From: Escherichia phage vB_EcoM_H12
Sequence record: PP952733.1
Length of the DNA: 64,000 bases
Reading direction: 5' to 3' (one strand)
The notes under the pieces were generated by a model. That model saw nothing but the letters and a program-made list of their open reading frames with translations. It was not told the DNA's origin and did no database searches. The position numbers were made by a program, and so were the translations under genes. Shown here one piece after another: positions 4,175 through 64,000 of this stretch. Each line of letters opens with the position of its first letter. The first letter of the stretch is position 1.

Positions 4175-9558
<5,384 letters not shown>

Positions 9559-16641: not shown

Positions 16642-17541
16642 TTACTTGCCTACTGACAGAGGTGCTTCAATCTTACCTGCATGTTGGTAGTTATTAATCC
16701 CACCAATAAAATCACTTGCTGTAAGATGTTTTAAGTCACTTAAAGTGTTAAGTGGAATACCAATCTCAAAAGTTGGTGCATGGAACTCTTCATTGTTCAT
16801 CAGTTCATAAACCTGCTTCATATGGTTCTGATAAATCTGAGTATCTCCAAAGACACCTATCAAGTACCGTGGAGTGTATCCAGTCATCTTACAAAGAACT
16901 TCCAGAATAAAACCGTAAGATGCAATATTAAACGGAAGTCCTAAAAAGGTGTCTACTGAACGCTGATACCATTGTAAGTCAACTTCACCCTCGTTAGTGA
17001 TATAAATCTGAAACAGAACATGACAAGGTGCTAAAGCCATCGAGTTTGCTGCAATATCTGCTGCATTCCAAGCATTAACAAGCATGTAACGGTCTGTGAT
17101 ATCACCCTTCATCTTCGTTACTAAGGTCTCTAGTTGGTCTACAACACAACCATTATGACCTTCAAAGTTTCTCCACTGAACCCCATAGATTCTTCCACCT
17201 GCATCCTCTAACCAATCTTGTTCAGAAGAATAATTAGAGCTTAACCAGCGTTTAAAATCATCTGACCAGATAGTCCAGCGTTCCCCATCATTTTCACCCC
17301 AAGTGCGGTAACGGAGTTCACCCAGCTTATTCTCACCGTTCAGGAACCATAAAGCTTCACCGATAACTTGTCGTGTAAACACCTGTTTAGATGTTAAGAG
17401 TGGGAAACCAGTTCGCATATCAAAACGAAACTGAGGTGGAGCAAATGCAGAGATAACATCACCAGTTCGTGTAGTACGCAGTTCACCAACGGATAAAACA
17501 TGGTTCAGGATATTTTTGTAACTTGTATCTGCTTGTGACAT
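16642..17541 (-). CDS. thyA: thymidylate synthase
   Basis: 299 aa; classic ThyA motifs (RTGxxT, ALxPCH catalytic Cys region, GLPFNIASY). Confidence 0.95.
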   Translation of the reverse strand: MSQADTSYKNILNHVLSVGELRTTRTGDVISAFAPPQFRFDMRTGFPLLTSKQVFTRQVIGEALWFLNGENKLGELRYRTWGENDGERWTIWSDDFKRWLSSNYSSEQDWLEDAGGRIYGVQWRNFEGHNGCVVDQLETLVTKMKGDITDRYMLVNAWNAADIAANSMALAPCHVLFQIYITNEGEVDLQWYQRSVDTFLGLPFNIASYGFILEVLCKMTGYTPRYLIGVFGDTQIYQNHMKQVYELMNNEEFHAPTFEIGIPLNTLSDLKHLTASDFIGGINNYQHAGKIEAPLSVGK

Positions 17542-17542
17542 A

Positions 17543-18088
17543 TCAAAAGTGTCCTTTTACTTGTGGTGTATAGATATCAAAAGTTGCTTTTCCATCTGCT
17601 GATGGTCTTGACTGAATCTTAGCGAAAATTTTACGGTCATGCAACTTGTCAAAGAAGTTCTCAAAAGGTAGATATACAGTTGCCTCTTCATTAACTTCAT
17701 GGAAAACTGTATGGAACACTACATCAGCATACGGTAAAGCACTGACAAGGATACCTGAACCACCAATTACGAAAACATCTTCTTCAATATTACTGTCAAG
17801 ATACTTTAAAAATGCTCCAAAAGAGTCTTGATGAGCTTTAGCAAACATAACATCATCTTTACTAAAATCTATACCGTAATAAGGCACAGAGTTTGTCAAG
17901 ATAAGGTTTTCACGTTCAGGTAAAGGGTTACTTCCCAGAGTCTTGAAAGTCTCATTACCCATTACTACTAAGTTGTCTTTAGTGAGTCTCTTAAACTCTT
18001 GCATATCCTCTTTATGTCGAGGCCACGGCATACCAGTTGGAGTACCAAACTCACCATTTTCACCACTTGCAAAGATTAATTTAATCAT
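17543..18088 (-). CDS. folA: dihydrofolate reductase
   Basis: 181 aa; GMPW motif, VVMGNETFKTLG and VIGGSG NADPH-binding motifs; adjacent to thyA. Confidence 0.85.
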   Translation of the reverse strand: MIKLIFASGENGEFGTPTGMPWPRHKEDMQEFKRLTKDNLVVMGNETFKTLGSNPLPERENLILTNSVPYYGIDFSKDDVMFAKAHQDSFGAFLKYLDSNIEEDVFVIGGSGILVSALPYADVVFHTVFHEVNEEATVYLPFENFFDKLHDRKIFAKIQSRPSADGKATFDIYTPQVKGHF

Positions 18089-18345
18089 TTTGTAAATCCT
18101 TTCTTAATGAACCAGTTGATAACATTCTTCACAGCTTTATTGCTATGGTAGATTAAGTGTGGCGTAGGCTGGTATGAACCATAAGCCCAGAAAGCAATAA
18201 TTTCACTACACCCTGTACACCTTGTACTCTCTTCAGCAATATGACCGTTGACTATTTCACTTACCTCACCTTGTAAGTCTGTGCATCCACAATGTGGACA
18301 ACGGATAGGTGCTCCGTCAGACTCATAGCAGTGTTCAATTTTCAT
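18085..18345 (-). CDS. small zinc-ribbon protein
   Basis: CPHCGC ... CTGC paired Cys motifs. Confidence 0.4.
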   Translation of the reverse strand: MKIEHCYESDGAPIRCPHCGCTDLQGEVSEIVNGHIAEESTRCTGCSEIIAFWAYGSYQPTPHLIYHSNKAVKNVINWFIKKGFTK

Positions 18346-18861
18346 TTATTTAACCTCAAAAACTGGTTCAAGAACCAATATAAAATCTACACAGTCATCT
18401 TCTTCATCCAGAATACCATCAAAGTTCTTAGGAACGAAGTCGAAGAGGCTCATAACAAAGCAGTCAGAAGTAACCCTAATAGTGCCTCCCATATTCTCTA
18501 CAGTCAACACTGTACGGCTTTCTTTTACCTCTCTCAGAAGATTACTCACAAAGTCATCTAAGAAGTACTTCATCAGTGACTTAAAGCCTTTAGGGTAATC
18601 TGTACCAGAGTATGTTTCAATCTGAGGTACAAGCTTAACATTTATACTGGTCTTTGTTAAGAATGTGCTAGAGAACATGCTATCAGGTAACTTACAAACA
18701 GTCTTTTCAGTACCTTCATGTTCAATCTCAACAAAACCAGCTTCATCGCCACATGTGACTATTTTAAAAGATGCTTCATTATCACCCTGTGAAGCCATAA
18801 ACTTTTTAAGCATCACTTTAAGGAAATCTGCATGAGCATCTTGTAAGTATATATCAATCAT
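18346..18861 (-). CDS. hypothetical protein
   Basis: 171 aa ORF in co-directional operon. Confidence 0.4.
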   Translation of the reverse strand: MIDIYLQDAHADFLKVMLKKFMASQGDNEASFKIVTCGDEAGFVEIEHEGTEKTVCKLPDSMFSSTFLTKTSINVKLVPQIETYSGTDYPKGFKSLMKYFLDDFVSNLLREVKESRTVLTVENMGGTIRVTSDCFVMSLFDFVPKNFDGILDEEDDCVDFILVLEPVFEVK

Positions 18862-18874
18862 AATTCATCACCTA

Positions 18875-19234
18875 TTATGGGAACAGACATTTGATGTCAT
18901 CGTTTTTGAAAACGAAGCTTGTGTAGTTGTGACCGTCAACATCCAGCCAAACAGCCTGAACATCTACACCATCAAGATTGTGGTAAAGCTCTTTGATGAA
19001 GTGGTCTTTCACAATCTGGCTGCTAGTTGTCTCCAGCTTAATGTTTGAGATTGCTGAACCTACAGCCATATAACCCATGACACGTTTCTTCTCAGTATGC
19101 TTAATCTTACCATCTTTGTAAGCCATAATGAGATTGGAAAGAATCTTCACACCATAATACTTTTCAAGGTGAGTAGGTACACCATAAAAGCCTAATGCGA
19201 AATTTTCAGAGTGGATAATGTTTTCACGTTTCAT
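18875..19234 (-). CDS. hypothetical protein
   Basis: 119 aa ORF in operon. Confidence 0.4.
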   Translation of the reverse strand: MKRENIIHSENFALGFYGVPTHLEKYYGVKILSNLIMAYKDGKIKHTEKKRVMGYMAVGSAISNIKLETTSSQIVKDHFIKELYHNLDGVDVQAVWLDVDGHNYTSFVFKNDDIKCLFP

Positions 19235-19235
19235 A

Positions 19236-19565
19236 TTAATCTGCCAGCCTTAAATTAAAATTAACACCAAATTTTTCGCATACTTCCAACATAAACTCAA
19301 GAGAGACATTACCAGTGAGATTGATTATGTTGGATACGCGAGCCTGAGAGATACCACAAATTTTAGCAACTTGCTCTTGAGAAAGACCTCTGGATTTAAT
19401 CTCTCTCTTAAAACGATGTGCAACGAAGTCTCTCATTTCGTCTACATCCATTGGACAAATATAATTCTCCATTTCAGCCTCTCTGTCAGCCTCCCAATCA
19501 TCTTGTGGAGCATAAGGGTCAAAAACCTCATTCATCTTTCTTCTTCCGTTTTCGTGAAGTGTCAA
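19236..19565 (-). CDS. XRE-family helix-turn-helix protein
   Basis: C-terminal LSQEQVAKICGISQARVSNIINL HTH signature; true start may be the internal Met at ~19535. Confidence 0.45.
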   Translation of the reverse strand: MTLHENGRRKMNEVFDPYAPQDDWEADREAEMENYICPMDVDEMRDFVAHRFKREIKSRGLSQEQVAKICGISQARVSNIINLTGNVSLEFMLEVCEKFGVNFNLRLAD

Positions 19566-19740
19566 TCAATGAATCTATGTTTGTAGACCTAACCTTTTCA
19601 CGTTCATCGTTAAGATAATCGTCAAGAATCTTTTCAATCTGTGAATCATCTTGACAGATAACTGTAAAGACTGTAAAGCCGTCTGTATCATCAATTATCT
19701 TACCATAACCGCTTCTGGGATGTAACTTTTTAAGAGCCAT
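19528..19740 (-). CDS. hypothetical small protein upstream of the HTH gene
   Basis: 70 aa, overlaps the HTH ORF start. Confidence 0.3.
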   Translation of the reverse strand: MALKKLHPRSGYGKIIDDTDGFTVFTVICQDDSQIEKILDDYLNDEREKVRSTNIDSLIDTSRKRKKKDE

Positions 19741-19741
19741 A

Positions 19742-20125
19742 TCAAATACCTGTGCAGCTTCTGTTTTCTAAGAAATACTCAACACCATACATAGCTTTTT
19801 GCATCAAATCTTCTTTAAACTGCATGCGATGATTGAGCATAGCCTGTACATCAATATCATCAGGGTGCTTCTCTTTAATGTTTGCAGATTGCAGGAAATA
19901 CTCTGCAAGAACACGATACTGATAGTCAGTTACCTTATCAGTCATCTCTGTTAAAGACTCTTCAGAGATTGGTTTAAGTAGCTCACCATTAGATAGAGCA
20001 ACACCTTTAACAATCTGACAAGTGTCTTCTGGAACACCTGATAAGTCCACATTTGGAAGTTCTGTTGCATTGACTGGTAAATTCATTGCCATAACCATTG
20101 CAGCAGCTAATAAAATCTTTTTCAT
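19742..20125 (-). CDS. secreted / periplasmic protein
   Basis: N-terminal signal peptide MKKILLAAAMVMAMNLPVNA. Confidence 0.45.
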   Translation of the reverse strand: MKKILLAAAMVMAMNLPVNATELPNVDLSGVPEDTCQIVKGVALSNGELLKPISEESLTEMTDKVTDYQYRVLAEYFLQSANIKEKHPDDIDVQAMLNHRMQFKEDLMQKAMYGVEYFLENRSCTGI

Positions 20126-20169
20126 AATGACCTCAAAGTTATATTAAATTTTGTATTACATTGAGTATA

Positions 20170-20198
20170 AAAATAAGCTATAACACCTGACTTGTCAA
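20170..20198 (-). promoter_or_regulatory. sigma70-like promoter for 19742-20125
   Basis: TTGACA on minus strand (plus 20193-20198) with AT-rich -10 candidates 17-25 nt downstream. Confidence 0.4.
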
Positions 20199-20221
20199 CA
20201 GATTTTATAGCTTATTTGGCA

Positions 20222-20360
20222 GATTTTTTATAAGGCTACTGCCATCCTTCCATACCTTACCACACCAAACCACACCATACCGAGCCACACCCTACCAGAC
20301 CCTACCAAACCCGACCGAGCATCACTTAAAAATCCTCTTAGAAGACTCTTAAGTGATGTA
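20222..20360 (-). repeat. structured intergenic element copy A
   Basis: CATCACTTAA ... TTAAGTGATG 10 bp inverted repeat (20320-20358), ~75 nt (GGTNN)n-like tract on minus strand, GGATGGCAGTAGCC box. Confidence 0.6.
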
Positions 20361-20384
20361 ATCGAATTTTAATGTAGCTCCGAT

Positions 20385-20470
20385 TAACTACCCGCACTTT
20401 ACCAAACCTCACCCTACCCTACCAGACCTTACCTAACCGCGCCGTACCTCATTAAAAGACCCTCTTAAAG
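20385..20470 (-). repeat. structured intergenic element, partial copy B
   Basis: Same CA-rich (plus) / GT-rich (minus) periodicity as copies A and C; lacks the perfect 10 bp hairpin. Confidence 0.45.
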
Positions 20471-20477
20471 ACCTTTT

Positions 20478-20506
20478 AAAAAGGAGCCTCCGAAGAGGCT
20501 ACCTAG
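20478..20506 (-). terminator. intrinsic terminator after 20512-20952
   Basis: Minus strand GCCTC-TTCG-GAGGC then TCCTTTTT. Confidence 0.55.
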
Positions 20507-20511
20507 TCAAC

Positions 20512-20952
20512 TTAGAAAGGTTTTCTACGTTGCTTATTAATGTTAGCTTTCATAGCAGCTAAATGGTTTTGCTGTTCAATCAGTCGTGAGCGTTCTTGAT
20601 GGCTAAGTGCCATAGTGTTCACATTCTCAATCGCTTGAGTGGCTTGCTTTAAAGCTCGACCAATCTTGCCAGACATTTTACGTTTTGCAATAGTTGCTTG
20701 ATGCTTAGGTTCAACCACACGATAACCAACACCCATTGAAGCAACCAGATAAATCTTCTCTTCTTTAAGAAGCTTCTCAATAAACTTCTCAAGTCGGTTT
20801 AGACGTGTAAGCGCATAAGCCTTCATTTCATCTTCGTACTTAACAATGTCACCTTGATAAGTTGGCTTCACAATACCTAAGAATGTGTCCATCTCAGAAT
20901 GTGATACAGTGTCACCGTAACTAAACTTTGCTGCTAATGCTTTTGTATTCAT
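20512..20952 (-). CDS. hypothetical protein
   Basis: 146 aa; coupled to 20955-21557; terminator downstream. Confidence 0.45.
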   Translation of the reverse strand: MNTKALAAKFSYGDTVSHSEMDTFLGIVKPTYQGDIVKYEDEMKAYALTRLNRLEKFIEKLLKEEKIYLVASMGVGYRVVEPKHQATIAKRKMSGKIGRALKQATQAIENVNTMALSHQERSRLIEQQNHLAAMKANINKQRRKPF

Positions 20953-20954
20953 AA

Positions 20955-21560
<606 letters not shown>

Positions 21561-21620
21561 TTAGTTGATTGTTAAGTTGTTTGTAAAGAACCCTCAACAG
21601 AAGACTCTTTAGAAACTTGG

Positions 21621-21749
21621 TAGATTTTTAACGTGGCTACTACCATCCACCCAGACTTTACCATACCTCACCAGACCATACCTCACCTGGCCGCGCCTTG
21701 CCTTGCCAAACATCACTTAAAAACCCTTTTAAAAGACTCTTAAGTGATG
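21621..21749 (-). repeat. structured intergenic element copy C
   Basis: Identical CATCACTTAA ... TTAAGTGATG hairpin (21711-21749), GT-rich tract, GGATGGTAGTAGCC box, same orientation as copy A. Confidence 0.6.
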
Positions 21750-21777
21750 CTGGTGAGTACCCGTTGGTTTATGCTGC

Positions 21778-21808
21778 TCAGTATACTCACCAAATTTTCT
21801 ATGTCAAC
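21778..21808 (-). promoter_or_regulatory. sigma70-like promoter upstream of copy C
   Basis: Minus strand TTGACA-N16/17-TATACT; -35 overlaps stop of 21804-21992. Confidence 0.45.
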
Positions 21809-21992
21809 AACTTTCTAATAAAGTTTTATGAAGATTTTGCTTAACAACCCGCCTCACATGTCTGTGCTCTTTCTTAATAAAGAGTGACCTCTTCTTGATA
21901 GAGCGCCTATTCTTGTAAGTGTTGCTAGGGTATTTATCATGAACCGGACAACAACTACCCGGTTTTGCAAACTTGATAATCTCTCTTTTCAC
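21804..21992 (-). CDS. small basic hypothetical protein
   Basis: 62 aa, Lys/Arg-rich; coupled to ligase gene. Confidence 0.3.
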   Translation of the reverse strand: MKREIIKFAKPGSCCPVHDKYPSNTYKNRRSIKKRSLFIKKEHRHVRRVVKQNLHKTLLESC

Positions 21993-23131
21993 TATTCATA
22001 ATCTCGTATAACCAGCCCAACAGGGAACTGTAAAGACCCCTTACGAGTCATCTTCTGGAACTGAACCGTTAAAGGCTTCCCGATAAACTCTTCAGGATGC
22101 TCAGCAAGATACTGTTTCTTCTCATGAGTAGTCTTCCATGAGACATCTACAAAGACGTTAGGAAGAGTCTCTACAACGAACTTGCCATGACCACGTTTAT
22201 CGGTCTTTACACCAGTCACTTTAAACTCTTCAGTGTGCATCTTCTTGTGTTTAATCAAGAAGTATGAACGGTGACAACACTCGTAGAAGGAGTCTTCAGA
22301 GATTGAACGGTACATTGCACCTTCAAACTTAGCTTCAACCCACTTATCATGAGCTTCATCGAACTCTTCCCAAGAATTTACACGACGAGACTTAACAGGG
22401 ACAACTTTACAGCCATCTCTAAAGTCATTCAATGGTGAAGTCTCAATAATATCTCTACGCTCAGGCCACGTCTTAGTACTGTCACAGATATCGTACCAGT
22501 AAAACTTGAGCAAGTGTCTGTCAGGATTGTCTTCATTTTTAATCATAGAGACAATATCTTCTAAGTCCCACCCATGAGCATAAATCTCTCCATCAAATTC
22601 ATCAACATCTTTGTGGAGCCTTAACATTGCCATAATGTCAGGTATTAGTTCAGTAGGGATTTTGTAAACAGTATTTTCACGAGAATATGCTGTGAATACA
22701 CTGCCAATACTTAAGTGCCTTGAAATCCTACAACGGACACCATCAAGTTTCGGTTGAGCATCAGCAGGGAACTTCAGATACTTTGCATGACTAACCTTTG
22801 CAGCATCATGAGCAAGCTGTACACCTACCTTCTCAGTATTCTGTGCAGACTCTTTTGTGTAAGCATAACCTTTGCGGTCAACTTGTTTTTTATACTTAGC
22901 AGCAACTTCAAAGAGAGCTTGCTGTTCAGCGTTACGCTCGTTCTTTTTACCGATGTTTTTAGGTTCTGCTGTATACTCTTCAAACATCATCTTGCCATTT
23001 TCTTTACCGTAGGTTGTAATAACTTTGTCACCTACAGCGACACATGACCAGACGTTAAAAGAGCCATCTTTATTTTGTTTGTATAGAGTTGTCATTTTAT
23101 TCCTCTGAGTGATACCAAGTATTGCAAGCAT
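21992..23131 (-). CDS. ATP-dependent DNA ligase
   Basis: 379 aa; KLDGVRC adenylation motif (KxDG) in N-terminal half. Confidence 0.75.
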   Translation of the reverse strand: MLAILGITQRNKMTTLYKQNKDGSFNVWSCVAVGDKVITTYGKENGKMMFEEYTAEPKNIGKKNERNAEQQALFEVAAKYKKQVDRKGYAYTKESAQNTEKVGVQLAHDAAKVSHAKYLKFPADAQPKLDGVRCRISRHLSIGSVFTAYSRENTVYKIPTELIPDIMAMLRLHKDVDEFDGEIYAHGWDLEDIVSMIKNEDNPDRHLLKFYWYDICDSTKTWPERRDIIETSPLNDFRDGCKVVPVKSRRVNSWEEFDEAHDKWVEAKFEGAMYRSISEDSFYECCHRSYFLIKHKKMHTEEFKVTGVKTDKRGHGKFVVETLPNVFVDVSWKTTHEKKQYLAEHPEEFIGKPLTVQFQKMTRKGSLQFPVGLVIRDYE

Positions 23132-23288
23132 TACATGCGTAAAGCTCTAAGTCATTTTTATCTGGTTTATGAAAACAGTTTGCTCCGCAGTGGCAACGAA
23201 ATGGCTTTCCATCAACTGTAAGGATGAAGGATTGAACCTTTCCATCAGGAGTTCGTACAGCATTTTTATGCTTATCTTCTTTGTTCAT
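23097..23288 (-). CDS. small zinc-finger protein
   Basis: CHCG ... CNACN Cys/His cluster. Confidence 0.35.
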   Translation of the reverse strand: MNKEDKHKNAVRTPDGKVQSFILTVDGKPFRCHCGANCFHKPDKNDLELYACNACNTWYHSEE

Positions 23289-23444
23289 TTTATCTCTTGC
23301 CTTTGTCAGATTTCATATATGACATGTTACTACGCCTTTTAATGAAATGCACAACGCATTTTGGTGTATTTTTTGCATCTTTGATGTGCAACCTTTCGAA
23401 ACTGCGCACTGTGAAGGTTGCATCTGTCATTGTTTGCTTAGGTT

Positions 23445-23750
23445 TCATTTTCTCTTACCACCAATCTCTACGTCGATAACTTGAACATCACCAGCAACAT
23501 CAAACTTATGGATGATGCTTTCCACAGTGTAAGTCCAACCCTCGATGCGAACCAACTCACCTTCTCGTGGGATGATTGGGTTACGTTGAGCTACGGTTGT
23601 AGTGGAGTGAACAACATCATAACAATAGATATAGTTTACTAGGACTTCCATCGTGAAAACCTCACTCAATAACCGTAGTGTGTGATTGACCATTTTTCCC
23701 ATAACTATAAGATGTTGTTGTTTGAGAGTTTGGACATCTGACAACAACAA
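23445..23750 (-). CDS. hypothetical protein (start uncertain)
   Basis: Overlaps 23662-23919 by ~90 nt; an internal Met is more likely the start. Confidence 0.25.
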   Translation of the reverse strand: MLLSDVQTLKQQHLIVMGKMVNHTLRLLSEVFTMEVLVNYIYCYDVVHSTTTVAQRNPIIPREGELVRIEGWTYTVESIIHKFDVAGDVQVIDVEIGGKRK

Positions 23751-23919
23751 TATCTCTGCTTATGGCATCACCATGTAACTTATAGACTTTGCAATCTTGC
23801 ATCTCTGGTGGGAGGCTATAAGAAGCGTTTTTGTCCTCGTAAGAGGGGTTGCAGCCAGATAGAAAAATTACTCCAAGTGCAACCATTGCTTTCACACAAC
23901 TCTTAACCTTATTGTTCAC
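23662..23919 (-). CDS. putative lipoprotein
   Basis: Signal peptide with lipobox LSGC (MVALGVIFLSGC). Confidence 0.45.
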   Translation of the reverse strand: MNNKVKSCVKAMVALGVIFLSGCNPSYEDKNASYSLPPEMQDCKVYKLHGDAISRDIVVVRCPNSQTTTSYSYGKNGQSHTTVIE

Positions 23920-24051
23920 GATAGTCTACCTCTCTGTATGTTTTTAAATAGTGAGTAATGAGTTCTGGTAATTCACTACGTTTAACGTTTGAACGAAGAA
24001 GTGTCCAGTCAAAACCTTTACCAACCCTTCCCCAGAGACTGTACATTTTCT

Positions 24052-24285
24052 TCATAGCAACTCCAGAATATCAATACGTTCACCTTTAAGTACTCCAGTA
24101 CGGTCTTTTGCAATCTTACCGTCAACGATAAGGATGTGTGTAGACCTTAAAGCGTCGTTGTTAAAGGTTTTTACGAACTTACTAGGCATGACTACAATGG
24201 ACATCTCCTGAATTAACTCTGGAGTGTAGCAGTTATCATGAAGTTGCTGAATAACGTCTGCAAGTGTCATTTTTGATGTCTCCAA
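24052..24285 (-). CDS. hypothetical protein
   Basis: 77 aa ORF in operon with polymerase. Confidence 0.35.
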   Translation of the reverse strand: METSKMTLADVIQQLHDNCYTPELIQEMSIVVMPSKFVKTFNNDALRSTHILIVDGKIAKDRTGVLKGERIDILELL

Positions 24286-24476
24286 TATTCAATATCTACA
24301 AGTTCTTGTGCAATGCTTTTCAGATTACCTTTCAAGAAAACCTTCTCAGAACCTGAAAGAGATGAATTGTCAATCAACCTGTTTATTCTCTCAAACAACT
24401 TCTGCTTACGATTCTTGATAGTTTCCTTTGAAGCACCTTTCATCATTGCTGCATGGGTTCTTCCACGGTGGCTCAT
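24267..24476 (-). CDS. hypothetical protein
   Basis: 69 aa basic ORF. Confidence 0.35.
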   Translation of the reverse strand: MSHRGRTHAAMMKGASKETIKNRKQKLFERINRLIDNSSLSGSEKVFLKGNLKSIAQELVDIEYWRHQK

Positions 24477-24537
24477 AATCGCTCCTATATAAGATATTGT
24501 ATAAGGTACTCTTCCATGAGCACCTTGTCAATACTAA

Positions 24538-27267
24538 TTAGTGAACCTCAAGCCAGCTTTTACCAACCTTACCAGTACCTGTAACAAGTGTTTCTTTCTT
24601 AAGACCTAAGTTCTTAGAAGCTTGTCCATAATACCAGTCAGTAACTGCTTTCACTTCTGCCGTCATACTTTCTGGACATTCCCAGCTTGTTTCATCGTGA
24701 TATGCGCAGAGCAAACGAGCACCAATAGCTGGTTGACGACCATTCAACTTCATCAAACCTTCGTCAATCATACGACGACAAGCAAGGTTAATTGCCTCGT
24801 TTTGAATCTGAGCCTCCGAACCCATAAGCAAATAATTCAATAGCTTATGTGGAGATTTACACCATAACCAAGCTCCAGCAACCTTTACAAAACCCCCTTT
24901 AGAGATTGCAGCAGTCTTACCAAACACCTCTTCAAGTGCCTTTTTAGTCGCTTTGTAGTCAGCTTCCAAGTCATCTAGCAGCTTCTTAATTTTAGGCAAA
25001 CGAATAAAGTAAGTCTGTTTAGTCAGTGCACCTTCCTGAGTAGTTGCAGCCTTAATTGTCTTAGCAAACTTCTCATCACCTGCACCGAACAGTAGTGCAT
25101 AGATACCATTCTTAGCTTTCTTACGACCCTTACTAATCTCATGAAGAAGATTCTCATCCTGAGTAGCTCGACAAGTCAAGATATCCTGCTCATCATTCAA
25201 GCTAAAGTAAATACTGTTCAGTGTGTGTGCATCAGTCCCTGAATAGACAACGTAAAGGTCGTTCTCAGAGTCATAGTGAAGGTACTTATCAACCTCTGGG
25301 TTGAGGTACTCATCAAAGTGTTTGCAGTAATAGCGTCCATCTTCTTGACGAATAAACTCAATCTCTTCTTTACCTTGCGTTACCGCTTTGGTGAAGTCTT
25401 TGTCACCCATAAAGTTACAAAGAAGAACTAGCTGGGCTGAGTTCATGTCTACAGAGACAACGTTAGTACCTTCTTCACAAATCCACACTGCCCTCATTGG
25501 TTCCCCATAGACAGCAGCACCAGACGGTACGTTTACAATACCATACTGTGTCATACGTCCAGTTGAAGTACCAAACACCATTGCACCAGCACTAAGGCGA
25601 CCATCTGGACGAATCTGGTTCAACCAACCTTTTTCATCATCCTTTGAGTTCTCAATAGTTCTGCGTCTGTGCATCAAAGTATAGTACTTAGCAATCTTCT
25701 GTCCAAGCTCACCTTCAATCGTATCATAAGATGATTCAGTAAGTTTTGGTGAAGTACGGATTAAGCAAGGCTCAAGCAAATCTGTGTACTTCTTCACAGA
25801 CCAGTTATGTTCAATGTACTGGACACCTTCATGTTCAACATAACTCAAACCACACCGTTCCACCATCTCATCCCACTTAGGATGTTTTGTAATCATCTTT
25901 TTGTTGTCTTTGAAACGACAAACCTTAACAGGACGACCATCTGAGTCTTTCTTGTAGTTCCAGTCATCTGGAATCCAACCAACTGATTTCAAGTAGTCTT
26001 TAACAACTGCTACCTGAGTCATACGAGAAACTTCGAACTCAATTGGTGTATATGGTGCATCAATCAAACCTGTGTAGCGACTTGACTCAAGTTCAAAGTG
26101 GTTAACAACATGACTGTTATAGTACTTCACAGTTTTAACTGTTTTTACTGGCTTCCAGTCTTTACACTTCTTACCAATCTTTGCATTCAACTCATTGCAA
26201 ATTGCACGAGCATCCTTCATTGCTACAAAGCCTTCCTTGTACTCTTCGCCAGTTACAGAGTTGGTTGGTGTATAGCAATTCCGCTTTTCAATGTTAAAAA
26301 TCTTTGTAGTTGGCTTACCAAATGGCTTGATTTCATATGTCTGCATCTCACCGTTACGTACCTGCTGACGATACTTTGTCTTAGGGTACTTGGTAATTCT
26401 CTTCAGTCCATCTGCATGACCGAATGCTTCAACATACTCATTCCAAGCTTTTGCAAATTCTTCTCCAGTGACTTTACCTTTGGTCTTAATAGTTGGAGGA
26501 AGATGTGGTTCAACTTCTGAAGCAAGCTCATTAGTCAACTTGTCAAGTTCCTTTACATGGAACTCCATAAGTTCTTTATCAGCTTTCCAACCATTGATAG
26601 CTTGTTGACTCATCCAGAAAGATGTTTCTTTAGCTCGCATGTAGGTTTCATAAGTATCTACGCCACACTTCTTCAGCTTGAGATATTCATTATCCAGTGC
26701 GCGTTTAGTTTTGGCGTTAATACGAATATCTTCTACAACACGAGTGAAGATTTCTGCATTCCACACACCCCAATGTTCAATCTCTGGTTTACGTACACCA
26801 ACACGAGCACCCCATGCTGCCAAGCCATGAGCGCCTTTATAGCCTTTTGGAGTTGGTCTATCCATCCACTGAACACGAGACTGGATAAGAGAATCCTGAA
26901 AGAAATTACTCCACGGCTTACACTTTGGATTATCAAAGTTCCACAAATCAGGTGCAATGTGATTGAAAACCCACCAGTCATATCCCAGACCATTATGGAT
27001 GCAAAGTCGTTTTGCCTTTAACGCAAACTCAACACCTTCACGCAAGCCACCCTTAATGTACTTGGTATACTTGTGACCGAGGATAGGTTCATCTGTAAAG
27101 ACCCATACAGGCGGCTCTTCATCGTCAGATTTATAGTCTGCGAAAGCCATTACGTGCACTTTAGTGAACTCAAGGAGTAAACCATCAGTTTCTGTATCAC
27201 CAACTAAATGTAAGTTTTTAAAATCTACGTTTTCCATTTTTACTCCCTCTAAAATCATTAACCTCAT
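24538..27267 (-). CDS. family A DNA polymerase with 3'-5' exonuclease domain
   Basis: 909 aa; N-terminal Exo I motif VGDTETDGL; C-terminal polymerase motif C (YHDE). Confidence 0.9.
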   Translation of the reverse strand: MRLMILEGVKMENVDFKNLHLVGDTETDGLLLEFTKVHVMAFADYKSDDEEPPVWVFTDEPILGHKYTKYIKGGLREGVEFALKAKRLCIHNGLGYDWWVFNHIAPDLWNFDNPKCKPWSNFFQDSLIQSRVQWMDRPTPKGYKGAHGLAAWGARVGVRKPEIEHWGVWNAEIFTRVVEDIRINAKTKRALDNEYLKLKKCGVDTYETYMRAKETSFWMSQQAINGWKADKELMEFHVKELDKLTNELASEVEPHLPPTIKTKGKVTGEEFAKAWNEYVEAFGHADGLKRITKYPKTKYRQQVRNGEMQTYEIKPFGKPTTKIFNIEKRNCYTPTNSVTGEEYKEGFVAMKDARAICNELNAKIGKKCKDWKPVKTVKTVKYYNSHVVNHFELESSRYTGLIDAPYTPIEFEVSRMTQVAVVKDYLKSVGWIPDDWNYKKDSDGRPVKVCRFKDNKKMITKHPKWDEMVERCGLSYVEHEGVQYIEHNWSVKKYTDLLEPCLIRTSPKLTESSYDTIEGELGQKIAKYYTLMHRRRTIENSKDDEKGWLNQIRPDGRLSAGAMVFGTSTGRMTQYGIVNVPSGAAVYGEPMRAVWICEEGTNVVSVDMNSAQLVLLCNFMGDKDFTKAVTQGKEEIEFIRQEDGRYYCKHFDEYLNPEVDKYLHYDSENDLYVVYSGTDAHTLNSIYFSLNDEQDILTCRATQDENLLHEISKGRKKAKNGIYALLFGAGDEKFAKTIKAATTQEGALTKQTYFIRLPKIKKLLDDLEADYKATKKALEEVFGKTAAISKGGFVKVAGAWLWCKSPHKLLNYLLMGSEAQIQNEAINLACRRMIDEGLMKLNGRQPAIGARLLCAYHDETSWECPESMTAEVKAVTDWYYGQASKNLGLKKETLVTGTGKVGKSWLEVH

Positions 27268-27494
27268 ACATTACTGCAAAAAATTATAAAAAGCAAGTTG
27301 ACAATGTACTTGACAAGGTGTTAATCTTTGCGAAGTGGGTTTTTACTTAAAAGGTTACTTAACAGTTTAACTATACAGATACTTTAAAACTCTTAAAAGA
27401 TTATTTAATAGCTTTTAAAAAGCTTTAAAGTATAACGTATAGAATACGTTAAGATAAAAGATTAAAACTTAATAGTTACTTAAAAGAGGCTTAC
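27268..27494. promoter_or_regulatory. divergent AT-rich control region
   Basis: Two overlapping TTGACA hexamers (27296-27313); palindromes AGCTTTTTAAAAAGCT and AACGTAT-AGA-ATACGTT. Confidence 0.4.
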
Positions 27495-27917
27495 ATGCAG
27501 AAAATGTTTGTTCACCCAGACATAGCTGACTTTGTTAGGGCTTTGCAGAAGTTGGAAGAACTTGACATTGCTGCTCAACGGGAATATGCTCACCATCACA
27601 GGAGAATGGTTGATATACAACATGAAATAGAGTTGTCTGAAAACTATGAAGATGACTTAAAATGCTCTGTATTTGAGCATATGAAAGATGTTGCTACAGC
27701 GAGACGTAAAGCTAAAGATACAGTTGCTTTACTAGATTCTCTTAAAAAGAGGTTGCAAAGTGGTACAGACCTGTGTAATCTAGCGTCACTGATTAACGAT
27801 GTTGAAACTTCTTGGGATAGACATTACTATCCACGTTCTGAAAAGGCACTTGACTTTTCTTCATCAGAAAACTTAAAATATTCTAGAAAGAAACTTAACC
27901 AACTGAGAGAGAAATAA
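27495..27917 (+). CDS. hypothetical protein
   Basis: 140 aa; first gene after divergent region. Confidence 0.4.
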   Translation: MQKMFVHPDIADFVRALQKLEELDIAAQREYAHHHRRMVDIQHEIELSENYEDDLKCSVFEHMKDVATARRKAKDTVALLDSLKKRLQSGTDLCNLASLINDVETSWDRHYYPRSEKALDFSSSENLKYSRKKLNQLREK

Positions 27918-27918
27918 T

Positions 27919-28731
27919 ATGAATACTACTGTAGACCAGATGCTTGAAGAAAAAGGTATTGACGAAGCATTCTTAATCAATGCCGTAGAAAGCATGGCTA
28001 TTATTCTTCGTGGAAACAACTACACAGAACAGTTTATGCCTGCAAGCTATAACTTGCCTAAAGACAAGTCTGATAACGGTGCTTTTGCAGAACAGGTTAA
28101 TATGATGCTGTGTGACAAAACGCTTGCTTTAGCATCTATCGTTGTAGGTGTTGATGCTCTTGCAGAGTTCATTTTTTATGAGATGCAGAAAAATGACTAT
28201 ATTGCCATGACCTCTGAAGAAAAAGACTCGCTACTGCTCTTAGATAATAATGAGCTAGTTGACCTGTTAATTTCGTCAACTAGTGCTGTTATGGCTGCTC
28301 TTGAGAAGCGCATGGAAGAGAAGTTGTCACGATATGAAAAACTTGATTGGGGTGTAGAAGAGTTAAACCCACGAATCAAAGAGATTATCCAGCAAACTAA
28401 AGACTCTTTAGCAGAAGCTGTGAAAGATGATTCTGTAGCTGATGTAGAACCACTACAGGTGAAGGTCGCTCTGATGATTCCAGCTATTTCTACAATGATG
28501 AATATCGTTGCACTAATCCAACTTTCTCAGATGTTGGGTGTCACCATTGAGTTCGTTGAGGAGATGACTGGTGGTGTAAGTATGCAAGCAATCAATGATG
28601 TTTTGGTAAACATTGGTGCTTCAATCATTGAAGAGAAACTGCGTATTAACTTCGGTGATGATTTTGTGAAGCAAATCTCAGCTATGGCTGAAAAAGAACA
28701 CTCACAGATTAATACTGACCGACTGCACTAA
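27919..28731 (+). CDS. hypothetical acidic protein
   Basis: 270 aa; coupled to upstream gene. Confidence 0.4.
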   Translation: MNTTVDQMLEEKGIDEAFLINAVESMAIILRGNNYTEQFMPASYNLPKDKSDNGAFAEQVNMMLCDKTLALASIVVGVDALAEFIFYEMQKNDYIAMTSEEKDSLLLLDNNELVDLLISSTSAVMAALEKRMEEKLSRYEKLDWGVEELNPRIKEIIQQTKDSLAEAVKDDSVADVEPLQVKVALMIPAISTMMNIVALIQLSQMLGVTIEFVEEMTGGVSMQAINDVLVNIGASIIEEKLRINFGDDFVKQISAMAEKEHSQINTDRLH

Positions 28732-60778: not shown

Positions 60779-60780
60779 TA

Positions 60781-60866
60781 AAGTACTTTACAGGGGGCTT
60801 AAAAGCTGATATCTTAAGCCCCAGATAAAGAGCTTTACCACATTAATCCTAAACTGGAGATTCAAA
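60781..60866 (+). repeat. type-1 intergenic element
   Basis: ACTTTACA, hairpin GGGGCTTAA/TTAAGCCCC with AAGCTGATA loop, AGATAAAGAG box. Confidence 0.55.
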
Positions 60867-61409
60867 ATGAAATGCTTTCACGGTACTACTCAAGAAAACT
60901 TCGTCAACCTGATTAATAACGGTGATAAACCATCAGGCGCATGGAATTGTTCTGATATGGATGGGAATTTCTACGTTTATCCAGAAAATAAAATCTATGT
61001 CGACGATGAGGAAGAAATAATCTCTGAAGGCATTCAACAAGCTTTAGGCAATGCCACTATAACGGCAGCTTTTCAGATGAAAACTCAAAACATTGTTATC
61101 TTGGAACTTGATATCCCAGAGGATGAGTTGAATGATGATTATTCTTGTGATAATATGTCGAGCGTGGCAAGTTTTACAGAGTATTTCGATATAAGCTGGA
61201 TTAAAAAGGTTTATATCACTGAATTTAATGCTATGTTTTCACCTTTTTGTCTTCCTTCACTGGATAACCCGAACTTAAACTATCTTGATGAGTCTCTGGA
61301 ACTTCTCGCTAAAAGTGTTCAACAATCAGACAGTATTCAGGTTTTTTGTGACATCATGGATACACTAACAGGAAACATCATAGAAAGTGATTTGAAGAGC
61401 TTTTTATAA
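60867..61409 (+). CDS. small-gene array: acidic hypothetical protein
   Basis: 180 aa; conserved leader variant. Confidence 0.45.
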   Translation: MKCFHGTTQENFVNLINNGDKPSGAWNCSDMDGNFYVYPENKIYVDDEEEIISEGIQQALGNATITAAFQMKTQNIVILELDIPEDELNDDYSCDNMSSVASFTEYFDISWIKKVYITEFNAMFSPFCLPSLDNPNLNYLDESLELLAKSVQQSDSIQVFCDIMDTLTGNIIESDLKSFL

Positions 61410-62142: not shown

Positions 62143-62270
62143 TCAATAACTTACAAAAAACTTTTAAAAAAGTGTTGACAATACCCCTTGACATTGGTAA
62201 CTTTGTTCGAGGGGGTTTATCTAAAAGGATTCACTTAAAAGATTCTTTATAGATAAACTTAAAAAATTGC

Positions 62271-63533: not shown

Positions 63534-63571
63534 TCGACGCAACGGGGCTAAATAGCCCCAGATACCTTTAC

Positions 63572-63595
63572 AGCCCCTTAAATGGGGCTTTTTTA
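63572..63595 (+). terminator. intrinsic terminator closing the small-gene array
   Basis: AGCCCC-TTAAAT-GGGGCT then TTTTTT; extra hairpin GGGGCTAAATAGCCCC just upstream. Confidence 0.55.
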
Positions 63596-63599
63596 CGTC

Positions 63600-64000
63600 T
63601 ATGTAATAGACCCTACACAATCCTTTCCAGAATCTATCTCGTACCTTAAAAGCAATAACTCTATAGCTTACTCTATAGCCCCTTATCAAATCAACTTAAA
63701 TATAAGCCAATAACCCCAGAAAGGGGATGGCCCATTTAAACGCTCTATAAAGCTCTATAACAGCCTTATCAACCTAACTTAATGGATTGCATTAACTCAC
63801 CCTTAAAAGCTCTTTACAGGGCTTTATAGAGGCTTAAAAGAATCTTATAAGGGTGTAAGCTTTATCATCTCGTTAGTTATCTTGTGAATGGTTAAACAAC
63901 CCCTTGATAGTCACTAAAAAGTATGTTATAGGGGCTATAAAGTCACTTTGAAGTAGCTTAAAAGTTACGTAAAAGGTGTTTAAAAGTTACGTAAATGCTA
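63600..64000. repeat. non-coding region with short direct repeats (continues beyond window)
   Basis: Repeated CTCTATA(A)AGC units; TTAAAAGTTACGTAAA twice at 63958-64000; no ORF over 60 aa. Confidence 0.4.

Follow-up and report, generated by a model that had tools for sequence, protein, structure and literature searches.

Putative back-to-back promoters and a conserved repeat-built, AT-rich leader dyad between the DNA polymerase and rightward replication genes of Felix O1-type phages

The T4 origins oriF/uvsY and oriG/gene 34 and the primary origin of T7 consist of a promoter followed by an easily melted AT-rich stretch near replication genes, T4 also uses MotA-dependent middle promoters, and the T7 early mRNA and the lambda N-leader carry long leader or intercistronic hairpins with RNase III sites. 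At the RNA level, the T4 gene 32 operator is built of a 5' structured element and then more than 40 nt with several UUAAA/UAAA repeats, including the ribosome-binding site (PMC535899), and on DNA the operators of phosphorylated ArcA (ArcA-P) hold at least two ATGTTAAAAA repeats 11 bp apart, where sites downstream of the transcription start can also repress (PMC4173790). The Felix O1-type phages are classic Salmonella typing phages, widely used in biocontrol and therapy, and neither their transcription programme nor their replication origin has been mapped. For Felix O1, Whichard et al. 2010 worked on the assumption that divergent promoters lie between genes 96 and 97 and found no obviously promoter-like sequence there; RNA of open reading frame (ORF) 96 was detectable by reverse transcription PCR within 5 min, and ORFs 96–99 peaked at 25 min (PMC3185647). 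Felix O1 encodes no RNA polymerase (PMC3185647), and its promoters would be read by the unmodified host enzyme. The corresponding intergenic interval was analysed here in a 64,000-nucleotide stretch of Escherichia phage vB_EcoM_H12 (PP952733.1), referred to as the window, where it separates the minus-strand DNA polymerase gene (Felix O1 ORF96) from the plus-strand ORF97.

The interval is best read, with a probability of roughly one half, as a divergent early promoter pair with a conserved repeat-built leader/dyad that controls the rightward replication operon after initiation. Host sigma-70 RNA polymerase would initiate in both directions from back-to-back promoters, the −35 hexamers of which abut in an invariant 17-mer. 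The leftward promoter, P_L (TTGCTT-N17-TAATGT, minus strand), is predicted to start the polymerase mRNA about 24 nt before the ATG at 27237, and the rightward promoter, P_R (TTGACA-N18-TGtTAATCT, plus strand), would transcribe ORF97, ORF98, the deoxynucleoside monophosphate (dNMP) kinase, the primase/helicase and the downstream genes from about 27334. The repeat-built leader would then act after initiation and tune how strongly and when the rightward operon is expressed; it would fold as a long AU-rich hairpin, likely a processing or stability determinant, and a sequence-specific factor would bind the repeated units, which reach the ribosome-binding site. As new elements the analysis offers concrete promoter assignments, a correction of the polymerase start, a tandem −35 promoter class and a subfamily-wide repeat-built AT-rich dyad.

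The window belongs to Felixounavirus (Ounavirinae), with Escherichia phage vB_EcoM_D4 (hereafter D4) as its top match at 99.5% identity; 305 phage records match the 1.5 kb around the interval, Felix O1 itself at 95.5%, and the interval corresponds to the Felix O1 region between gene 96 (DNA polymerase) and gene 97. When the window is compared with Suspvirus or Mooglevirus, the non-coding gap shows 80–86% identity, against 85% for the first 600 nt of the polymerase gene, 66–78% for ORF97 and 53–58% for ORF98; across the three genera the intergenic region equals the polymerase gene in conservation and far exceeds ORF97 and ORF98. Column variability was assessed in an alignment of 31 distinct sequences from these three genera (Felixounavirus, Suspvirus and Mooglevirus), where the variable columns concentrate in the polymerase leader, the P_L spacer, 5 nt between two TTGACA copies and short spacers further right. 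The design of a promoter plus a repeat leader is present in all Ounavirinae lineages examined and also behind two paralogous promoters. An earlier note made on this DNA from its letters alone had called the interval a divergent control region, a description well supported by this conservation, by the two outward promoter-like hexamer pairs and by the divergent promoters assumed and the ORF96 transcripts detected by Whichard et al. 2010 (PMC3185647).

Both −35 hexamers lie back to back in the 17-mer AAAAAGCAAGTTGACAA (27288–27304), which contains no variable column among the 31 sequences and in which the minus-strand TTGCTT and the plus-strand TTGACA are one base apart. The P_R −35 TTGACA (27298–27303, plus strand; 6/6 match to consensus) is the first of a tandem pair and stands 18 nt from a conserved extended −10, TGt TAATCT (27319–27327, plus strand; hexamer 27322–27327), which keeps the form TAnnnT in every lineage, such as TAGTCT in Mooglevirus; TAATGT in Yersinia P778 and the metagenome lineage L060; TAGGCT in Pectobacterium Arno162; TACATT in Erwinia phiEa104; and TATCGT in the metagenome lineage L058. 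A GAAGT box (27332–27336, plus strand) is kept in the window, Yersinia P778, L058 and L060, and because it stands exactly 4 nt after the −10 in these several lineages, the P_R transcription start is predicted at about 27333–27335. On the minus strand, the predicted P_L −10 TAATGT (27268–27273) has T1, A2, G5 and T6 invariant and positions 3–4 variable, being TAGGGT in Mooglevirus and TAATTT in the metagenome lineage L057, and the predicted P_L −35 TTGCTT (27291–27296; 4/6 match to consensus) is invariant; the spacer between them is fixed at 17 nt and variable in sequence, L057 having TTGCTT-17-TAATTT. T1, A2 and T6 are thus retained in both −10 hexamers while the middle positions vary, and the spacer lengths of P_R and P_L are constant although the spacer sequences vary. 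From this pattern we infer two back-to-back outward sigma-70 promoters, their activity and start sites included.

A second TTGACA (27310–27315, plus strand), invariant in the three genera, lies inside the P_R spacer, and two copies within 257 bp were reached in 0.1% of 3000 dinucleotide shuffles. The two hexamers had been described in the earlier note as tandem and overlapping; the tandem arrangement stands, but the copies start 12 bp apart with 6 nt between them and do not overlap. Only one TTGACA, at the position equivalent to the P_R −35, is present in the Yersinia, Pectobacterium and Erwinia relatives. Use of the second copy as a −35 was rejected, as no −10-like hexamer is found 16–18 nt downstream and the tandem register differs in L060. 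A perfect minus-strand TATAAT (27283–27288) was likewise rejected as the polymerase promoter, being not conserved outside Felixounavirus and having no workable −35. T4 MotA-type middle promoters were defined as a (a/t)(a/t)(a/t)TGCTT(t/c)A box 11–13 bp upstream of TAnnnT that recurs upstream of many genes; the interval gave a single relaxed match, AAAAGCTTTA-N12-TAGAAT at 27418–27445, no second non-coding example of such a promoter was found in the 89-kb genome, and the candidate was dropped.

The polymerase gene (24538–27237, minus strand; Pfam DNA_pol_A) almost certainly begins at ATG 27237 and not at the longest-ORF ATG at 27267, judging from a Shine-Dalgarno sequence GAGGGAG (27243–27249, minus strand) that lies 5 nt upstream of this ATG and is invariant in all Felixounavirus, Suspvirus and Mooglevirus sequences, from the Suspvirus and Mooglevirus annotation, and from 1-nt indels at 27238–27258 within the genus, which would put the upstream ATGs out of frame. 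The annotated start varies among records, with 27267 for the longest ORF, 27258 in the D4 and Felix O1 records and the equivalent of 27237 in the Suspvirus and Mooglevirus records. With the start at 27237 the intergenic gap is 27238–27494 and therefore 257 bp long, and the 227 bp given in the earlier note presuppose the longest polymerase ORF.

The promoter class recurs elsewhere in the genome. A paralogous promoter and leader (62175–62260, plus strand, with a noted region to 62360) has tandem TTGACA copies at 62175/62188 and the −10 TGgTAACTT, and the CTAAAAG, CTTAAAAG and CTTTATAG of its leader form a 5' hairpin; a third copy, outside the window, has tandem TTGACA copies at D4 8682/8694 and the −10 TAGGCT (region 8682–8831) and occupies the other divergent gap, that of Felix genes 40/41. 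The paralogous leaders fold at z = −2.7 and −4.1, the latter being the 62175 leader. These loci make up a predicted class of tandem −35 promoters with three members per genome.

Behind P_R, the leader (27338–27494, about 160 bp, 22% GC) contains an array of about 10–12 octamer units of the consensus CTTWAMAG (27346–27486, plus strand). The units start at 27346, 27358, 27371, 27382, 27392, 27404, 27412/15, 27423, 27468 and 27479 and read, in order, CTTAAAAG, CTTAACAG, CTATACAG, CTTTAAAA, CTTAAAAG, TTTAATAG, CTTTTAAAAAG, CTTTAAAG, then CTTAATAG and CTTAAAAG; they are spaced 8–13 bp apart, and the final unit overlaps the conserved Shine-Dalgarno sequence of ORF97, AAGAGG (27484–27489, plus strand). 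A weight matrix made from non-coding copies, C-T-T-(A/T)-A-(A/C)-A-G, gives 7 plus-strand matches in the interval, where 0.35 are expected and none of 2000 shuffles reached more than 3, and the interval is the densest internal octamer cluster of the 89-kb genome, comparable only to the terminal non-coding region. In the three genera, 3/45 columns are variable in the octamer core (positions 1, 2, 5, 7 and 8) compared with 22/39 in the spacers (Fisher p = 6e-7), indicating selection that keeps the octamer units and not the spacers. The leaders of other lineages are too diverged to align and are all about 140–160 nt long; those of the Yersinia, Pectobacterium and Erwinia relatives and most metagenome lineages are enriched, mostly with 3–6 matches against 0.15–0.4 expected (only 2 in L058), and in every lineage the element is placed after the predicted start site and before the start codon. 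No match to the octamers was met in the literature searched, in which the anatomy of this control region appears to be undescribed; the kinds of element concerned (promoters, leaders, a possible origin) are already known. The sequence TATAGAAT was considered as a −10 specific to the phage or as a promoter of the late type, but it does not recur as an upstream motif and is better read as a degenerate octamer copy.

Conserved cores with free spacers, in units about one helical turn apart, would also suit a DNA operator array, whereby a phage protein or a host regulator, for example phosphorylated ArcA, coats the octamers, blocks or modulates transcription and also binds the terminal-repeat arrays; this explanation is considered unlikely. 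Members of this motif family also crowd the ends of the genome. In D4, about 1.9 kb of gene-free DNA (L012:1-1032; L013 = D4 88395-89439) includes a direct terminal repeat of 579 bp with about 27 TGTTA(A/G) direct repeats at 10–12 bp phasing, a layout that matches ArcA-P operators, and window 63540–64000 is the counterpart of its left part, the end of the window coinciding with the start of the D4 terminal repeat; in the relative UAB_Phi87 a 608-bp terminal repeat was shown experimentally (PMC4837284). The leader units of distant lineages are mostly of the AACAG (=CTGTT) type, and the repeat interval and downstream placement of the ArcA-P operators introduced above fit such an array. However, the ArcA-essential TGT occurs in only 2 of about 10 interval units, and no TGTWA chain with 10–12 bp spacing is present in 27238–27494, many being present in the D4 terminal repeat, so that ArcA is kept only as a lead. 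No phage protein with a matching distribution was found either, since the helix-turn-helix (HTH) regulator described below is confined to three genera and the octamers occur in all lineages. If a host regulator does read the terminal-repeat arrays, this would be a new link from host physiology to phage development.

Over the array, duplex stability falls to its lowest for any 150 bp of either the window or the whole 89-kb D4 genome (27339–27488, 21% GC), with a nearest-neighbour free energy (dG) per bp of −1.075 against a mean of −1.279 (standard deviation 0.042), about 4.9 standard deviations away and clearly apart from the runners-up at −1.12 to −1.15. This bears on the chief rival to the promoter-and-leader reading, a transcription-activated origin, in which the AT-rich dyad downstream of P_R is a DNA unwinding element and either the P_R transcript or an octamer-bound protein opens the duplex, allowing the primase/helicase and the polymerase, whose genes lie on the flanks, to load. 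Its location directly downstream of a conserved promoter and between the polymerase and primase/helicase genes would fit, as would the long AT-rich dyad, the strands of which fold equally, as expected of a DNA-level element; iteron-like short repeats coincide with the least stable DNA, as in an iteron array, and the cumulative GC skew has its minimum at the interval. The skew, however, merely tracks the direction of transcription in this genome, there is no A-tract phasing or curvature signal (no 10–12 bp periodicity above shuffles in the interval), and the same promoter-plus-dyad design heads two other operons, for which a promoter/leader class is simpler than three origins. No initiator is evident, the primase/helicase not having been checked for a DNA-binding domain: ORF97 adjoins the array in all lineages, but its homologue in SUSP1, gp047, is scored 'Not fit' in CRISPRi-ART, i.e. 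dispensable (PMC11879866 supplement), and its AlphaFold2 (AF2) model is all-helical, a helical hairpin with no significant PDB or fold match and no DNA-binding fold. ORF97 was rejected as a DNA-binding partner on the same model. Taken together, an origin is considered unlikely.

A further AT-rich gap was observed inside the leftward operon, where about 390 bp within 20109–20511 are gene-free, hold the second least stable DNA of the window (20109–20258) and include a minus-strand TTGACA at 20193; this gap may be an internal promoter or control region.

The octamers form a 96-bp imperfect dyad (27358–27453, centre about 27406), an inverted repeat with long hairpin or cruciform potential. Folded as RNA (27355–27456) it reaches −23.3 kcal/mol (z = −4.7), with 0/200 shuffles as good, and RNAalifold also predicts it; 8/9 lineage leaders fold better than shuffles, with z from −1.5 to −4.2, and their outer stems are formed by an octamer and an inverted copy. 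The leader was also weighed as a translational operator of the T4 gene 32 type, in which a protein resembling single-stranded DNA-binding protein (SSB) or RegA coats the UUAAA leader and represses translation. By reading, about seven UUAAA units lie in the leader and the last octamer overlaps the Shine-Dalgarno sequence, an arrangement that recalls the repeats and ribosome-binding site of gene 32, but the leader is predicted to be largely paired, its folding has no strand asymmetry, and neither a pseudoknot nor an Rfam family was found (best Rfam 15 scores 13–23 bits against thresholds of 42–109, E-values of at least 0.39). The downstream genes are not SSB-like: the models of ORF97 and ORF98 are both all-helical, and ORF98, tried as an SSB, was rejected on a model of low confidence (predicted local distance difference test, pLDDT, 49) and no PDB sequence match. 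Such an RNA operator is regarded as very unlikely.

Two palindromes within the dyad had been noted earlier, in the earlier note, among the features of possible operator sites or an origin element. The 16-bp perfect palindrome AGCTTTTTAAAAAGCT is absent from the sequence, one T having been added by the reader; what is present is a 15-bp palindrome, AGCTTTT-A-AAAAGCT = AGCTTTTAAAAAGCT (27410–27424, 7-nt arms around a central A), which arises where two octamer units meet close to the middle of the 96-bp dyad. Its symmetry is lost in Suspvirus, in the sequences L023, L035 and L037 and in some Felixounavirus (AAG variant), and its register is shifted in Sf13-like phages. The interrupted palindrome AACGTAT-AGA-ATACGTT does occur, with arms that extend to 8 nt, and forms an 8-3-8 inverted repeat TAACGTAT-AGA-ATACGTTA (27433–27451) in the right arm of the dyad, found only in Felixounavirus, Suspvirus and Mooglevirus and absent from L057 and more distant lineages. 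In dinucleotide shuffles, at least one inverted repeat with arms of at least 7 nt appeared in 30%, two in 10% and an 8-nt arm in 11%; the palindromes alone are not above chance in 26% GC DNA, and they are worth noting only because of their conservation and context. The 3' arm ATACGTTAAG has two possible partners, the neighbouring 5' arm and the distant octamer at 27358–27363, and the same two double changes preserve both pairings across the three genera: A-T becomes T-A in Suspvirus and Sf13-like phages, joined by a change of C-G to T-A in Moogle-like phages.

Discrete palindromic operators for dimeric repressors, such as a Cro/CI-like HTH protein on TAACGTAT-AGA-ATACGTTA, would be one way to explain the palindromes, since the 19-bp 8-3-8 repeat has the size of a Cro/CI operator. 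A gene for a Cro/CI-type HTH regulator does lie within the leftward polymerase operon (19236–19565, minus strand), and a scan of ten neighbouring ORFs revealed no other recognisable DNA-binding regulator; it is found in Felixounavirus, Suspvirus and Mooglevirus and was not detected in the Erwinia, Yersinia and Pectobacterium relatives, a distribution identical to that of the 8-3-8 palindrome, although a single ancestral gain could explain it. Palindromes of this kind are, however, expected by chance at this composition, the symmetry of the 15-bp palindrome is not maintained, and the half-site changes of the 8-3-8 repeat are compensatory whereas the recognition helix, SQ[A/S]RVSNI, hardly varies and shows no change in step with the state of the palindrome, so that co-evolution of the two was rejected. 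The same changes occur in the third, distant copy at 27358–27363, which base pairing fits better than dimer binding. The operator role proposed for the two palindromes accordingly finds no backing, and dimeric-repressor sites are as doubtful as the translational operator.

Several observations weigh against a divergent promoter pair with a leader acting after initiation. The −10 hexamers of P_R and P_L each match TATAAT at only 3/6 positions, and for this reason both promoters were missed by the 2010 authors and by a standard consensus promoter scan of the interval, which reported neither and gave as its single output a weak, non-conserved minus-strand match at 27429–27400. The second TTGACA is left unexplained by the promoter assignment, the literature search gave no start-site or transcriptome data for this phage group, and no binding factor was found, the ORF97 and ORF98 models being without a nucleic-acid-binding fold. 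The phiEa104 leader has no excess folding (z = 0.07), and the complementary strand folds equally well, with the plus strand favoured in 6/11 cases and a mean difference of 0.3 kcal/mol; with no strand preference, folding therefore cannot separate an RNA hairpin from a DNA dyad. The covariation in the 8-3-8 arms consists of three states with no intermediates, hence of only two evolutionary events. Octamers of related sequence are likewise packed into the gene-free terminal region and the terminal repeat, where no promoter was seen, which points to a reader at the DNA level.

The promoter-and-leader reading and its rivals are not all mutually exclusive. The sequence elements, the way they are conserved and recur, the dyad and the low stability of the duplex are shown directly, whereas the mode of action, on RNA or on DNA, is inferred along with the binding of a factor. 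A broader and rather improbable proposal is that one code (CTTWAMAG plus a TGTTA-type variant) marks the replication control region, two other early promoters and the direct terminal repeats and has one reader, a phage protein or ArcA-P, in which case early expression, replication start at the dyad and genome-end events would be tied together and perhaps also to how much oxygen the host has. Ribonucleotide reductases of both the aerobic and the anaerobic kind are encoded by these phages. If the dyad is an origin or a leader-level switch, it could be used to engineer their expression or replication.

The genes around the interval are arranged in three blocks, with plus-strand structural genes up to about 16.6 kb of the window; a single minus-strand block (16642–27267) with thymidylate synthase, dihydrofolate reductase, ligase and the family A DNA polymerase; and, from 27495 onward, an extended plus-strand block that encodes ORF97, ORF98, dNMP kinase, primase/helicase, exonuclease and ribonucleotide reductases. 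The flanks are thus those named in the earlier note, a minus-strand polymerase and a plus-strand replication block. ORF97 (27495–27917, plus strand), the first gene of the rightward block, belongs to the function-less family phrog_4039. ORF98 (27919–28731) is labelled 'minor tail protein' (phrog_4251) and yet sits between ORF97 and the dNMP kinase gene; this label looks doubtful in view of its location in the replication block, of its low-confidence all-helical AF2 model and of the SUSP1 data, in which the polymerase and gp048, the ORF98 homologue, are important for infection (PMC11879866 supplement). An inserted HNH homing endonuclease gene separates the polymerase start from the control region in Erwinia Kolesnikvirus (phiEa104 L009:3055-3531; L010:3005-3484) and leaves the promoter and octamer leader intact. 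Recurrent cassettes occupy the gaps between small early genes from about 55 kb onward (60780–60870, 63540–63600 and others), each with a G+C-rich hairpin (GGGGCT...AGCCCC), then AGATAAAG, and a nearly fixed ribosome-binding block TAAACTAGGAGATTCAAAATG, and match the 57-bp direct repeats that the Felix O1 paper described. Felix O1-like DNA was also seen in records named for Gram-positive hosts, GU169904 'Staphylococcus phage SA1' (95% identity) and OK283618 'Listeria phage LPML1', which are probably chimeric or mislabelled database records.

Compared with known systems, the interval resembles the early divergent sigma-70 promoter pairs of phages in its outward promoters, its adjacent −35 hexamers in a short conserved block and its location at the sole strand switch that separates two early operons; it differs in the extra invariant TTGACA in the P_R spacer and in the weak −10 hexamers (3/6), P_R having a compensating TGn, and no operator between or over P_L and P_R was identified. 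As in the promoter-plus-unwinding origins of T4 and T7, a promoter stands directly before the least stable stretch of the genome and beside replication genes; unlike T4, this genome has no MotA-type promoter class, and unlike both kinds of origin, the interval holds a long octamer dyad that recurs behind two other promoters. With the T4 gene 32 operator (PMC535899) it shares an AU-rich leader with UUAAA-type repeats that enter the ribosome-binding site of a replication-module operon, but the leader here is about 160 nt long and mostly self-complementary, has no nucleating pseudoknot and precedes genes that are not recognisably SSB. The ArcA-P operators (PMC4173790) are approached by repeats about every 11 bp that lie partly downstream of the start, and the terminal arrays match TGTTAA at 10–12 bp phasing; the interval units are, in contrast, mostly TTTTAAG or TTTAAAG and are missing the essential G. 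For the phage leader hairpins, the predicted stems of the interval are almost purely A-U, with no strand asymmetry and no Rfam match, unlike those of T7 and the lambda N-leader, with which the interval nevertheless shares a long imperfect hairpin in the leader of an early operon, found here behind each promoter of the same class.

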